Positions 12,877 through 40,475 of a stretch of 64,000 nt of DNA are shown here, one piece after another (positions within the stretch are counted from its first letter, which is position 1; each line of letters opens with the position of its first letter). The notes beneath the pieces were generated by a model that was not told the DNA's origin, did not search any database, and saw only the letters and a list, made by a program, of their open reading frames with translations. A program made the position numbers and the translations under genes. Source of the DNA: an uncultured Chlamydiae bacterium (GTDB taxonomy: Bacteria; Chlamydiota; Chlamydiia; Chlamydiales; Parachlamydiaceae); assembly GCA_963754655.1 (NCBI GenBank), contig CAVWGN010000001.1:2976001-3040000 (forward strand), in the 5' to 3' direction.

Positions 12877-13171
12877 GGCATGGTTCAATTGAAGGTAACA
12901 TTTTTATGCCGTCCTTTCAGGACTCGGTGTCTTTTGATAGAACCCAGGCCTCCGCTTCGCTGCGACCTGGGCTGTAATAGGCCGGCCTTTCAGGCTTAAC
13001 GAGAGATGTTTTAATCCCTCATCTATAGTCCCTAATAGTCTTTTTGTTAAGGCCCGAAGGGCCGTCATGTTACAGCCCAGGTCGCAGCGAAGCGGAGGCC
13101 TGGGTTCTATCAAAAAGACACCGAGTCCTGAAAGGACGGCATAAACATGTTACCTTCAATTGAACCATGGC
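12877..13171. mobile_element. Family-A palindromic miniature element (REP/MITE-like), copy 1, stand-alone
   Basis: ~100-bp inverted arms GGCATGGTTCAATTGAAGG...CCTTCAATTGAACCATGGC; flanks TTATTTTG / TTATTGTG; core in opposite orientation to copies 2-4. Confidence 0.85.
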
Positions 13172-13445
13172 TTATTGTGTTTTGAATGACATAATATTAA
13201 CACAATTAAGGATTAAAATTCCAAATAGAATTTTTTTTATTAAATTTTTTAATATCGATGACTTAATCTAATTGATCCGTCCATTTACCAATAGTTCAAT
13301 GCCAAAATAAATTTAATATTTAAAAAAAATTAAGCAAAATTAAATCAATCTTTATCAAGAATTAAAACAATTATTCAATAATATTGTTTAAAACTTTATG
13401 ATATAAGATTGTAAATTTATTATTAATTTAAATTTAAGGATAAAA

Positions 13446-14780
13446 ATGACCAGTTATTCTATTAATTCTCATTGTCAATTAAGGCAATCAGCAGAAATTT
13501 TGAATGTCACTCGCCTTCAAACTACTCAAACTGAGGTAAATACATGTTTTATTAAGGCTGGTCAACCAGAAAACGACGTATTAGTGAAAATTACCCAACA
13601 AGCTTTTCAAAATTTATCTCTCGTAGATATTCAACCTTTAGACTCAACAGCGAACAAACTATGTACAGTACTGATAAGGAAAGCAAGTGAGGAATTAAAT
13701 CAATCACTAAGTGTTAAAACATTTAAAAATAGTTTAGAAATTTTACTAAATAATTTTTCAGATAGAATCACTGAGCCTACTAATGCCGCTTTTATTAAAG
13801 CTTTAAAACATGATTTAAAGCATAAAAATTTAACAGAAATTTTTAATAAGTATTACAATTATGCGACTTCTTCTCCTATAGAAAAAACTCTTTTATTTCA
13901 CTTTGCTCCTTACTTGGGCAATAAAGATAAAATTCAACTATTAGCTGAAAAAGAAGCTGAGTCGTTACCTGAAAAAATTCAATCTCACTTAGAATTTTTT
14001 GCTACAAACCGGGATGAATTAATGACTTTGCTTATCAAAAGAAAAAAGGACAAAAATCCCAAATTAAATTGCTATGTGATTGATATATGCGATCTTCCTA
14101 CCTGTGTAGAAGGCTTAAAAACATTATATCATTCTCTGCCTTCTGAAAAGTCTCAACGGATTCAATTGTTAGTCCGAAATGACGTCCATTATACAGGTGT
14201 TGATATCGACCTCTCAAAAAAAGAGACTCAAGTGGCCGTTATGGATGCTGCAGGAGATCCCAAATGCAAAGAGATTCTTTCTATATTAAAACAATTGGAC
14301 TGCCAGTTTATGTATGTTCTAGGGTTAGAAGATCACATTCAATTTGATAATTATAATTGTGGTTTTTTCTCGTTTGATTCGGTTTATCAATCTTCTCAAG
14401 ATCCCAATTTCTTTGATTTACTTAAAAAATTACCCGCTGAGAAAAAAGATCATTATTATAGTTTAGCTTGGCAAAACACGCCTCCGCGCTATGTAAGAAA
14501 CGCTACTTCACTTACCTTTATGAAAAAATACCATGAAAGTAATCCCCATAAAGATGAAATCTATAAAAATAATGAGACTTTTGCTTCTTTTGTCAATAAG
14601 CATATTGACAAAAGAAATATCAATGGAAATTTAAAAGATGCTCATACTGTTTTGGAAGACAAAGTCACCAAGCAAAAACCTAAAATCACATTGATGCTCA
14701 AGGAGTTATCTGCAAGAGATTTATATGACATCATTAATCATCATTCTGCACAGGCTTTGATTCAAGCGTGCCATAGCTAA
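13446..14780 (+). CDS. YopJ/CE-clan-like cysteine-dependent acetyltransferase/protease, putative T3SS effector (paralogue 2)
   Basis: LLVRNDVHYTGVD, VMDAAGDPK, IQFDNYNCGFFSF motifs; aligns by eye with 11568..12851; SD AAGGA; S/T/N-rich N-terminus. Confidence 0.7.
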   Translation: MTSYSINSHCQLRQSAEILNVTRLQTTQTEVNTCFIKAGQPENDVLVKITQQAFQNLSLVDIQPLDSTANKLCTVLIRKASEELNQSLSVKTFKNSLEILLNNFSDRITEPTNAAFIKALKHDLKHKNLTEIFNKYYNYATSSPIEKTLLFHFAPYLGNKDKIQLLAEKEAESLPEKIQSHLEFFATNRDELMTLLIKRKKDKNPKLNCYVIDICDLPTCVEGLKTLYHSLPSEKSQRIQLLVRNDVHYTGVDIDLSKKETQVAVMDAAGDPKCKEILSILKQLDCQFMYVLGLEDHIQFDNYNCGFFSFDSVYQSSQDPNFFDLLKKLPAEKKDHYYSLAWQNTPPRYVRNATSLTFMKKYHESNPHKDEIYKNNETFASFVNKHIDKRNINGNLKDAHTVLEDKVTKQKPKITLMLKELSARDLYDIINHHSAQALIQACHS

Positions 14781-14860
14781 ATTCTACGTAATCACCTTAC
14801 GCAAACGAGGTCAAAGAATCAAATATCTCATAAATAACCAAATAGCTTGATGTGTTTAAT

Positions 14861-38456: not shown

Positions 38457-39766
38457 AAGATTCTTCCCTTATCCAAGATTTCTTAACTTTTTTGGATGAC
38501 TCACCCACTGCTTGGCATGCTGTTGCACGAGCTCGTCATCAACTCCAACAGGCTGGCTTTATAGAATTATCGGAACAAAATTACTGGAATATTCAACCTC
38601 AACAGCCTTATTTAGTCACCCGTAATGGCTCTTCGCTTTGTGCTTTCATTACTCCTCGTCGCTTTCCTCAACGACTCCGCTTATTAGCCTCGCATACAGA
38701 CAGCCCTAGCCTGAAGCTCAAACCTCAGCCTGAAATCCGAAAACATCGCGCCATTTTGCTAGGAGTCGAAGTGTATGGCTCCCCTTTACTAAGCTCTTGG
38801 CTCAATCGTGATTTAGGAATCGCTGGACGCGTCCTTTATAGCCATCACGGACAAGTAAGAGAAAGCCTGGTCCGTCTCGATCGCTATCCTGTCACAATCC
38901 CTCAGCTTGCCATTCACTTAGATCGCGAGGTCAATGACAAAGGCTTGCATCTCAATAAGCAGGAGCATTTAAATGCTCTAGCCGGATTAGAAAGTGCTTT
39001 TAAAGGGTCTTCTTTTTTAGAATCTCTATTGCAAGAAGAGCTGGATTTTGAACAAATCATTGCTCATGATCTTCTCTTATTTCCTTTGGAAAAAGCACGT
39101 CTATTGGGATTTCAAGACTCTTTTTTAGCTGCTTATCGCATCGATAGCTTAGCCAGTGTGCATGCCGCCTTAAAAGCCCTTTTACATCACCTAGATCCGT
39201 TAGAAGATGACATCAAAATGGTTATATTTTGGGACAATGAGGAGGTAGGATCTCACACAGCTCAAGGAGCTGACTCTCCTTTTTTCAGCCAAATCTTAGA
39301 ACGGATTTTACAGGGATTCAAAGGGTCAAGAGAAGATTATTTTTGTTTGCTCAATCGATCCACTTGTATTTCTATTGATTTAGCGCATGCTTTGCATCCC
39401 AATTATGCTGAGAAGCATGATCCACAGCATCAGCCTTTTTTAGGCCATGGCATTGTCCTCAAAAGCAATGCTCAACAGCGCTACGCCACCAACGCACGTT
39501 CTTCTTTGCCTGTCAAAATGATGGCAGCTCTTAAACAGATTCCCCTGCAAACATTTGTCAGCCGCAATGATATTCCATGTGGCACCACAATTGGTCCCTT
39601 GCAAGCTTCCTTAACAGGCATGCCCACAACCGATATTGGCTGTGGCCAACTCTCCATGCACTCCTGCCGCGAACTCATGTCCTGCCAAGACCACATCGAC
39701 ATGTGCCTCTTGCTAGGAAATATTTTGCAAACGCCTCATTGGCCTCAACCTTTTACATGTGAATGA
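38453..39766 (+). CDS. M18 family (aspartyl) aminopeptidase
   Basis: SPTAWHAV, HTDSP, DNEEVGS, DLAHALHPNY, SMHSCRE; ATGA overlap with the mnmH stop. Confidence 0.9.
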   Translation: MKDSSLIQDFLTFLDDSPTAWHAVARARHQLQQAGFIELSEQNYWNIQPQQPYLVTRNGSSLCAFITPRRFPQRLRLLASHTDSPSLKLKPQPEIRKHRAILLGVEVYGSPLLSSWLNRDLGIAGRVLYSHHGQVRESLVRLDRYPVTIPQLAIHLDREVNDKGLHLNKQEHLNALAGLESAFKGSSFLESLLQEELDFEQIIAHDLLLFPLEKARLLGFQDSFLAAYRIDSLASVHAALKALLHHLDPLEDDIKMVIFWDNEEVGSHTAQGADSPFFSQILERILQGFKGSREDYFCLLNRSTCISIDLAHALHPNYAEKHDPQHQPFLGHGIVLKSNAQQRYATNARSSLPVKMMAALKQIPLQTFVSRNDIPCGTTIGPLQASLTGMPTTDIGCGQLSMHSCRELMSCQDHIDMCLLLGNILQTPHWPQPFTCE

Positions 39767-39831
39767 AGAGAAGAATTGATTAGTCGTATGATCGGCGAAC
39801 TTTAGAATATTAGAATCAAATGACAAATGAC

Positions 39832-40475
39832 TAGTACTCCATTACATGAGTTTTAGCCTATTAGGACTGCTTCAAAGCCCGGGATTGGGATGAGATGATT
39901 CTCTTGTAGTCCTTCAGACTACATGACGAGGGCTAATCTAACCCAGGGCTAGGGTGTTCATTTTGTGCAAAAAATGAGCTTTATTTTTCACAATAATTGG
40001 CATAGTTGAATAGAAGGTCGCATGTTTATGCCGTCCTTTCAGGACTCGATGTCTTTTTGATAGAACCCAGGCCTCCGCTTCGCTGCGACCTGGGCTGTAA
40101 CATGACGGCCCTTCAGGCCTTAACAAAAAGATGATTTAGGGACTATAGAAGAGGGACTTAAACATCTCTTGTTAAGGCCTGAAGGGCCGTCATGTTACAG
40201 CCCAGGTCGCAGCGAAGCGGAGGCCTGGGTTCTATCAAAAAGACATCGAGTCCTGAAAGGACGGCATAAACATGCGACCTTCTATTCAACTATGCCAATT
40301 ATTGTGAAAAATAAAGCTCATTTTTTGCACAAAATGAACACCCTAGCCCAGGGCGATGCCCTGGGTTAGATTAGTCCTCGTCATGTAGTCTGAAGGACTA
40401 CAAGAGAATCATCTCATCCCAACCCCGGGCTTTGAAGCAGTCCCCATAGGCTAAAAATCATGTAATGGAGTACTA
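39832..40475. mobile_element. 644-bp composite palindrome: family-B arms enclosing family-A copy 4 (39999..40296)
   Basis: TAGTACTCC...GGAGTACTA ends; near-perfect inverted symmetry around a short asymmetric core; between convergent genes. Confidence 0.9.

Follow-up and report, generated by a model that had tools for sequence, protein, structure and literature searches.

Nested palindromic elements in a chlamydial genome: Y1-type hairpins within ends that match insertion sequences

Background

Long palindromes built of several layers occur in a 64-kb stretch of the genome of an uncultured chlamydial bacterium of the family Parachlamydiaceae. This stretch, referred to as the window, corresponds to G000:C1:2976001-3040000, genome G000 having 3.16 Mb in two contigs (C1, C2). 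At the centre of the palindromes lies a repeat of about 298 bp, element A, which also stands alone. In this study, we present evidence that these elements are composite and non-autonomous and join Y1-type hairpins to terminal inverted repeats (TIRs) and target duplications of the DDE type, as the initial annotation of the window had supposed. We describe their layers and copies, the Y1 transposase genes with which the hairpins are associated, the insertion sequences (ISs) that their ends match and the order in which the layers appear to have been put together.

Results

Copies and layers in the window

Four copies of A and one lone arm of a second hairpin family, B, lie in the window, at the positions originally reported for them. 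Two copies of A are bare. The first (12877-13171, 295 bp) has a left-type end at both sides, its right end with one base changed, and is flanked by an 8-bp duplication with one mismatch (12869-12876 / 13172-13179). Its arm is a three-hairpin unit, hp1-hp2-hp3 (12904-13000, plus strand), mirrored at ~13046-13144. The second bare copy (29040-29390, 351 bp) is asymmetric and of ancestral type: at 29040 it has a right-type end of 37 bp, at 29390 a left-type one of 27 bp. Its centre is partly duplicated, and it is likewise flanked by an 8-bp duplication with one mismatch (29032-29039 / 29391-29398).

The other two copies are the cores of large palindromes, one downstream of der (18640-19882, 1243 bp) and one at 39832-40475 (644 bp). 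In both, the layers from the outside in are G, B, A' and A, written G[B[A'[A]]]. The outer arm of ~165 bp, previously taken as a single arm in a nesting of two families, thus consists of three separable layers, a G shell of 54 bp, a B hairpin arm of ~64 bp and an A' shell of ~48 bp, which makes four layers in total. In the 39832 stack these are the G arms (39832-39885 and 40422-40475), the B arms (39886-39949 and 40346-40421), A' (39950-40345, with a 9-bp flanking duplication, one mismatch) and A (39999-40296). The A' shell arm with its TAGGGTG end (39950-39998, plus strand; mirrored at 40297-40345) is followed by the 27-bp left-type IS end of A (39999-40025, plus strand; mirrored at 40270-40296). 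This copy folds at -379.9 kcal/mol, as compared to -73 +/- 4 for 20 shuffles. In the 18640 stack, the G arms are at 18640-18693 and 19830-19882, the B arms at 18694-18757 and 19766-19829, A' at 18758-19765 and A at 18805-19717. An exact A centre of ~298 bp, as first described for both palindromes, is found in the 39832 copy (298 bp), but A in the 18640 copy measures 913 bp and holds a tandem expansion of 5.9 copies of a 123-bp unit, hp3-centre-hp3', with 99% matches (18895-19623, plus strand). In both stacks the centre of B is missing between two hairpin-2 sites. The separate arm between convergent genes (14861-14962, minus strand) is indeed lone and diverged, but it represents the three-hairpin part of B only, with neither a G nor an A' layer. 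No transposase was found among the 15 window ORFs (open reading frames) scanned of the 55 listed, in line with the first inspection; candidate partners lie elsewhere in the genome.

Abundance in the genome

A BLAST search with A returned 520 hits, which merge into 173 loci, fragments included, so that copies exist beyond the sites in the window. The left-type end of A occurs 228 times in the genome (at most two mismatches), its reversed-pattern control not once. Eight repeat queries together mask 137 kb or 4.3% of the genome. Paired hairpin doublets number 104: the A' shell holds 79 and a second shell, A'', another seven, the remaining 18 being outside both; the element is non-coding, 298-396 bp in size and, with these 104 paired copies, multi-copy. 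None of 121 loci lies within an ORF of at least 120 aa, and convergent gaps are mildly enriched for repeat loci (32/121 vs 253/1439). Two to six centres with differing junctions were seen in 27 of 84 paired cores genome-wide. On contig C1, 94 of the 114 left ends of G and 81 of its 112 right ends lie in a CTAG context. There are 16 short G copies: 13 contain a 58-bp central palindrome only, one is empty and two hold collapsed A' remnants, which are central deletions. Fourteen G copies that lack A' or B are paralogous empty sites, and the whole of B (~433 bp with G) is present at other sites of the genome.

Hairpin core and Y1 transposase genes

Nine PF01797 matches were found in the genome. 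Seven are IS200-like genes, of which six are intact and one is truncated; the others are a classical IS200/IS605 gene and a fragment. The classical tnpA (G000:C1:1646440-1646799), with a broken TnpB-like neighbour, is unrelated to the hairpin families. The IS200-like genes carry the DH[IV]H, WQ and YxxxQxxHH motifs, encode about 148 aa and are of low copy number. These motifs define subclass 1.2, for which Table 1 of Quentin et al. (2018, PMC6006769) gives 'no' under repetitive extragenic palindromic sequences (REPs); we assigned the genes by motif alignment against that table and not by the authors' hidden Markov models. The arm of A aligns over 92/100 columns with the downstream flank of the intact Y1 gene C1:395753-396202, and the arm of B over 53/62 with the flank of the Y1 gene C1:2544233-2544682, the alignment starting in the gene's last codons. 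Two further families, C and D, match the flanks of two other genes, so that each of the four matches one Y1 gene's flank; scores of A, B and C against non-cognate flanks are at most 24, those of the A and B arms at most 22. As judged from these alignments, the arms of A and B are shown to be flanking hairpin units of resident subclass-1.2 Y1 genes.

A link to REP-associated tyrosine transposases (RAYTs) had been proposed at the outset. Cognate Y1 genes with the same hairpins do exist, but they are IS200-like genes of subclass 1.2 and not classical RAYTs. The A-cognate protein scores 64 bits with the NCBIfam IS200-like profile (cut-off 55) and 23 bits with the RAYT profile (cut-off 80), and the resident subclass-1.2 enzymes range from 64 to 73 bits with NF033573 (cut-off 55) and reach at most 25 bits with NF047646 (cut-off 80). 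A class-2 TnpA-REP with its YxxxNP motif was rejected as the Y1 partner, since the motif is YxxxQxxHH and NF047646 is below cut-off. By inspection, the GT[AG]G tetranucleotide of the hairpin foot was not seen in the three hairpins of A; the first hairpin of B starts with GTAG, which lies within its stem.

Subclass-1.2 genes carry inverted hairpin flanks across phyla. Among the best 80 of 592 relatives in GTDB, 73 had flanks of 200 bp, and 47 of these 73 loci show an inverted repeat across the gene, as compared to 0/62 distant-flank controls and 6% of cross-locus pairs. Part of the unit coincides with a described family. The motif hp2+hp3 matches the full 46-position model of Rfam RF01687, Acido-Lenti-1, with 38.1 bits at 13050-13104 against a gathering score of 37, the sole window hit at threshold; a match of this kind to a described repeat or RNA family had been named beforehand as counting against the composite-element reading, and it covers this part only. 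Acido-Lenti-1 was described as a small RNA (sRNA) of unknown function (Weinberg et al. 2010, PMC2864571) and still appears as a function-less sRNA in the accessible text of a recent report (10.64898/2026.10.21.760802). It matches 20 of 40 scanned Y1 loci at E<=0.05, 12 of them at the gathering score, and is mostly directed away from the gene. Of 40 relatives, several of them incomplete genomes and kin that are not independent, 14 have both the motif and a subclass-1.2 gene, five the motif only, three the gene only and 18 neither. At E<=0.001 this genome has at least 113 hits, the relative G007 has 103 and G020 has 112, as compared to 0, 0 and 1 in three genomes of the same genus and none in 14 controls. 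Although listed as an sRNA, Acido-Lenti-1 acts here like a component of a DNA repeat that is associated with Y1 genes, and the family is best taken for this repeat.

The doublet in A is inside-out relative to the layout that flanks the genes. Both orientations occur in relatives without the ends of A, and eight gene-deleted, right-way-out copies are present in this genome within another shell. In G007 the doublets look free, with arms of variable length that lack fixed ends. In G020, which belongs to another genus, the same doublet lies right way out within nested shells of its own; the nesting there appears to have arisen independently.

Ends of A

Both ends could be read in 16 of 18 bare copies, two being dropped as incomplete. 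Nine of the 16 have two different ends, five two left-type and two two right-type ends. An 8-bp duplication with at most one mismatch flanks 12 of the 16 and is perfect in six. When the end pattern was sought in 301 genomes, it was numerous only in G009 (23 matches), a member of the same family as the window genome, its protein being source-labelled Parachlamydiaceae. There, A-type ends bound a 1793-bp element (L191:133-1925) with an ORF of 508 aa. The left end of A agrees with the left end of this IS at 21-22/24 bases and the right with the right at 26/35, ungapped and with the same spacing. G009 also holds one A'-like end, and its 508-aa IS left end folds back on itself (~77 bp; L191:133-209, L187), with 77-bp mini-elements also standing alone, a possible second case of mirroring.

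The 508-aa protein has 5197 homologs, nearly all unnamed, among 8000 candidates scored, and no match in Pfam or NCBIfam. Its atlas neighbours (0.98-0.99) include ISL3 in 17-26% of members or Mutator in 12-13%, and the IS that matches the ends of A is probably ISL3/IS256-like. Its ends are conserved as far as plasmids of Acaryochloris. IS6 and IS1595, suggested earlier as the partner that duplicates 8 bp, can be set aside, the genome having no PF13610 or PF12762 match; IS1 was not searched. When ORFs enclosed by A-type ends were sought with loose criteria, chance pairs alone came up, and an empty A mini-element of 58 bp was sought and not found.

Shells around A

The TAGGGTG end of A' matches an IS in G007, which has a TAGGGTG end and a clean 9-bp duplication and is of one family with a resident 1845-bp IS (L021, G000:C1:2444907-2446752; 10 near-full copies). 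This family has 49 homologs, annotated as hypothetical only, and makes 9-bp duplications. Modelled, the transposase of the 1845-bp IS resembles Hermes (Z 15.0, rmsd 4.9, 319 aligned), the P element (Z 12.0) and ISCth4 (Z 10.8), by which the family is predicted to have a DDE fold. The 1845-bp IS inserts at a GC-rich motif that also flanks A', and the target motif RCCCHGGGY is present in hairpin 2 of B and in the centre of G. PDB sequence searches with alignments of both unnamed transposase families, this one and that of the 508-aa protein, returned nothing significant; a profile comparison between the two gave a probability of 1%, not significant, although their motifs line up. Both are unnamed in the sense that annotation lists hypothetical proteins, and they may carry names in ISfinder. 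A further abundant transposable element of the miniature inverted-repeat kind (MITE), F, has ~75 ends per strand and the same target motif; its ends match G000:C1:426687-428472, a distant paralog (28%) of the 1845-bp IS.

The shell A'' matches a broken resident ISAs1, A sitting 66 bp inside the ISAs1 end. Both A'' arms match one single ISAs1 end (45/69 vs 31/69, ungapped), and direct repeats of 6-10 bp are found at 6/6 paired A'' copies. An empty full-length A' shell was searched for and not found in the genome. Flanks are mirrored beyond the element ends in 19/72 A' copies.

Order of events, mirroring and age

In one asymmetric A' (C1:958107-958559), which has a 9-bp duplication, the arms are unequal (106 and ~50 bp); in the usual, symmetric A' both arms are of the short type. 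Four paralogous TAGGGTG ends run uninterrupted through the 8-bp target of A into the first bases of the short arm. Together with the asymmetric copy, these uninterrupted ends indicate that A inserted into a pre-existing element. The four copies that provide this empty site of A are fused upstream of a repeated thioredoxin-like gene segment (G000:C1:1895600-1922010).

The two arms of one A' are more alike than chance pairing allows. Over 68 copies, arms differ at 2.4/162 columns within a copy and at 4.7 between copies, the lowest of 2000 permutations being 4.25. Identical arms make up 35% of pairs within copies and 1.8% between copies, and 14 copy-private variants are present in both arms. Statistically, the arms are homogenised within copies; the mechanism may be template switching, which has been published as a means of perfecting inverted repeats (Lavi et al. 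2018, PMC5941160).

Core divergence is 1.4% for A' (n=50) and 6.1% for bare copies (n=11), and by this measure the A' cores are younger than the bare ones. A diagnostic end variant is common to 46/50 A' cores. Twelve cores are identical, among them the window copy at 40026 and one on the small contig C2, which makes the spread recent; the earlier description of A as still spreading is borne out for recent spread and not for continuing activity.

The repeats were also traced in read data. Contigs of a soil run (X1) cover the repeat ~150-380x and unique DNA 2-4x, the latter in short pieces only, and a contig of a second run (X2) joins an A arm, an A' arm and a G arm in a related stack. Both runs belong to a single study; X1, which may be the sample that the genome came from, is not independent.

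Repeats as landing sites

A 1458-bp IS has all 11 of its copies (11/11) in the first hairpin of A, each with a 9-bp duplication. For six IS families taken together, 42/44 near-full copies have a flank that falls within the 4.3% repeat mask, and for two further families 12/23 and 2/3. Insertion of ISs into REPs is a known habit (Tobes & Pareja 2006, PMC1525189). Insertion targeted at palindromes explains the nesting of the shells.

Other features of the window

About 30 bp downstream of the 12877 copy is the likely start codon of a minus-strand gene ending at 11568, an intact ORF (11568-12881) that resembles YopJ-like acetyltransferases weakly and below threshold (21.6 bits, cut-off 24.4). A palindrome of family C (49536-49845) with arms of 143 bp stands between dnaK and a gene for cytidine deaminase; the palindrome's cognate Y1 gene is G000:C1:2429359-2429802, and the family has 82 BLAST loci genome-wide. 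Three diverged repeats of 102-105 bp (6449-6804) are found within the 5' portion of a long gene for a secretin (GspD-like).

Discussion

We consider it probable that these are gene-less layered elements in which a pair of Y1 hairpins lies inside IS-matching ends, that DDE transposases did the copying, and that the hairpins served as passengers and landing sites. A Y1 enzyme would first have made hairpin doublets, such as exist without IS ends in relatives. One doublet was then presumably enclosed by the left and right ends of the 508-aa IS, the structure seen in the bare copies, and would have spread with 8-bp duplications. One A inserted inside a TAGGGTG-ended element gave A', as the empty site and the asymmetric intermediate show, and another, 66 bp inside an ISAs1 end, gave A''. 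One arm has been copied onto the other, as the arm statistics show, perhaps by template switching, replacing unlike ends and erasing duplications. A burst of A' may have followed, moved by a transposase of a DDE family targeting RCCCHGGGY and resulting in nested stacks. G, lastly, may be an IS630-type shell that moves its contents, which the shared terminal bases suggest weakly.

Several observations weigh against this scheme. No transposase for the ends of A was found in the genome, nor an intact IS with TAGGGTG ends, so that what moved A and A' has to be deduced from relatives or by assuming cross-mobilisation. Four of the 16 bare copies of A lack a duplication, and so do all complete copies of the 508-aa IS (0/4). 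A 9-bp direct repeat with at most one mismatch is present in only 16/72 A' copies; the duplications of A' are obscured by mirroring and by the near-palindromic target. A tree of 65 cores is star-like with nine label changes and does not resolve a single origin of A'. Neither an orthologous empty allele (at the der site, in five relatives, three of them of the same genus) nor an excision read was found. The der orthologs in the five relatives have no element within 228-330 nt past the stop, and the next gene differs; gene order after der is not kept, and these element-free sites are therefore not empty alleles. All that G has in common with the resident intact IS630 is seven terminal bases and the CTAG site. 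The TGGGATGAG end of B equals the end of the 1845-bp IS over 10 bases, but B's Y1 gene also accounts for it with its last codons, so that the IS match may be chance.

More tentatively, and with slightly less than even confidence, we suggest that a palindromic passenger landing a little way inside an IS end can found a new MITE family: the end would be mirrored to the far side, and the IS transposase would then spread the symmetric element. One Y1-derived doublet would in this manner have changed its carrier at least three times, between two unnamed DDE families and ISAs1, its hairpins becoming the next targets.

A different account holds that all layers are units like REPINs (inverted REP doublets) moved by the resident Y1 enzymes, the outer layers being flanking DNA made symmetric and the IS ends the outcome of frequent IS landing. 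The A-cognate Y1 gene is intact in this genome while the partner of A's ends was not found, doublet arms in G007 extend variably with no fixed ends, ISs do pile into the repeats (42/44), and mirroring runs past the element ends in 19/72 A' copies. We nevertheless regard this account as unlikely. The outer boundaries are fixed at canonical IS end positions, two different ends match the left and right of one IS, and A' occurs only at the motif that a DDE family targets. To our knowledge, HUH (IS200/IS605) enzymes make no target duplications, yet such repeats flank 12/16 bare copies and 6/6 of A''. We find it more improbable still that assembling or polishing palindromic DNA produced, in part, the 123-bp array and the perfect symmetry as artefacts. 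Long palindromes are hard to sequence, and no contig from the read runs bridges the array, but the high repeat coverage in X1 (~150-380x against 2-4x) and the X2 contig joining the arms of A, A' and G speak for real copies, symmetric and asymmetric forms coexist in the assembly, and the junctions of multiple centres differ among 27/84 cores. That the core is a host-selected structured RNA or terminator, with Acido-Lenti-1 a true sRNA and mobile DNA only a secondary decoration, accords with the Rfam match at gathering score, with the absence of loci from ORFs (0/121) and with the mild enrichment in convergent gaps, but is very improbable and largely refuted by the patchy distribution, the inverted placement around Y1 genes in many phyla and the near-identical young copies.

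The preferred reading of a Y1 hairpin pair carried between IS ends draws on several known systems, cited here from the accessible parts of each source. REPINs and REPtrons with RAYTs (Bertels & Rainey 2011, PMC3116915; Quentin et al. 2018, PMC6006769) likewise have inverted hairpin doublets, one family per Y1 gene, an intergenic location, high copy numbers and tandem expansions. Unlike them, the unit described here is ~100 bp long with three hairpins, A has no GT[AG]G foot, the enzyme is of class 1 (subclass 1.2) and not of class 2, and the doublet sits between IS ends and has target duplications instead of moving bare and without duplication. The enzymes are similar to IS200 group 3 in motifs, size (about 150 aa) and divergent low-copy paralogs; abundant flanking 16-mers are reported for that group (Bertels et al. 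2017, 10.1101/119735), and we infer that subclass 1.2 is probably the same as group 3. In contrast to its published listing as REP-less, 47/73 subclass-1.2 genes here have inverted three-hairpin flanks.

Di Nocera et al. (2013, PMC3733652) described TIRtrons, in which a tyrosine transposase gene lies between long inverted repeats that make up repeat families, and noted REP dimers within long palindromes of Anabaena variabilis and Halothiobacillus neapolitanus; the accessible text of that paper does not trace the outer palindromes to IS ends and gives no duplications or empty sites. Bacterial MITEs such as Correia, RUP, ERIC, Nezha and QMITE (Minnick 2024, PMC10969869; Delihas 2011, PMC3184786) are likewise below 500 bp and intergenic, with TIRs, a duplication and IS-matching ends, but the elements studied here are unlike them in their four-deep nesting and in a shared REP-type cargo that changes its carrier. 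REPs, according to Delihas (2011, PMC3184786), do not have MITE signatures. The REP-targeting ISPpu9/10, ISPa11, ISRm19/22, IS1397 and IS621 (PMC1525189) have fixed landing positions in palindromic repeats as well; here, by contrast, a single genome has six such families, and new non-autonomous elements arise from the targeting as well. The element is short, non-coding and multi-copy, with target duplications and TIRs that match ISs (weakly for G). It works like a MITE; it is REPIN-like only in its core and is not a member of the REPIN/RAYT group. It is explicable from known parts, namely Y1 hairpin cargo, DDE MITE carriers, palindrome mirroring and palindrome-targeted insertion. In a literature search to which subscription journals were mostly closed, nothing was found that links Acido-Lenti-1 to Y1 genes, or that describes REP doublets in IS-ended shells or such repeats in chlamydiae; supplements may bear on these points.

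Conclusions

The asymmetric ancestor, the empty site, the mirrored descendant and the burst form a readable fossil series for the origin of a MITE and for a swap of carriers, by a route that does not pass through internal deletion of an IS. The findings also support the view that Acido-Lenti-1 is the DNA end that belongs to Y1 enzymes of subclass 1.2, a subclass listed as REP-less where it was defined (Table 1 of PMC6006769). They expose two IS families annotated only as hypothetical proteins, with 49 and 5197 homologs, one of them with a predicted DDE fold and a defined 9-bp target. In this chlamydial genome, the repeats cover ~4.3% of the sequence and absorb most IS insertions, and in doing so they may shield genes.

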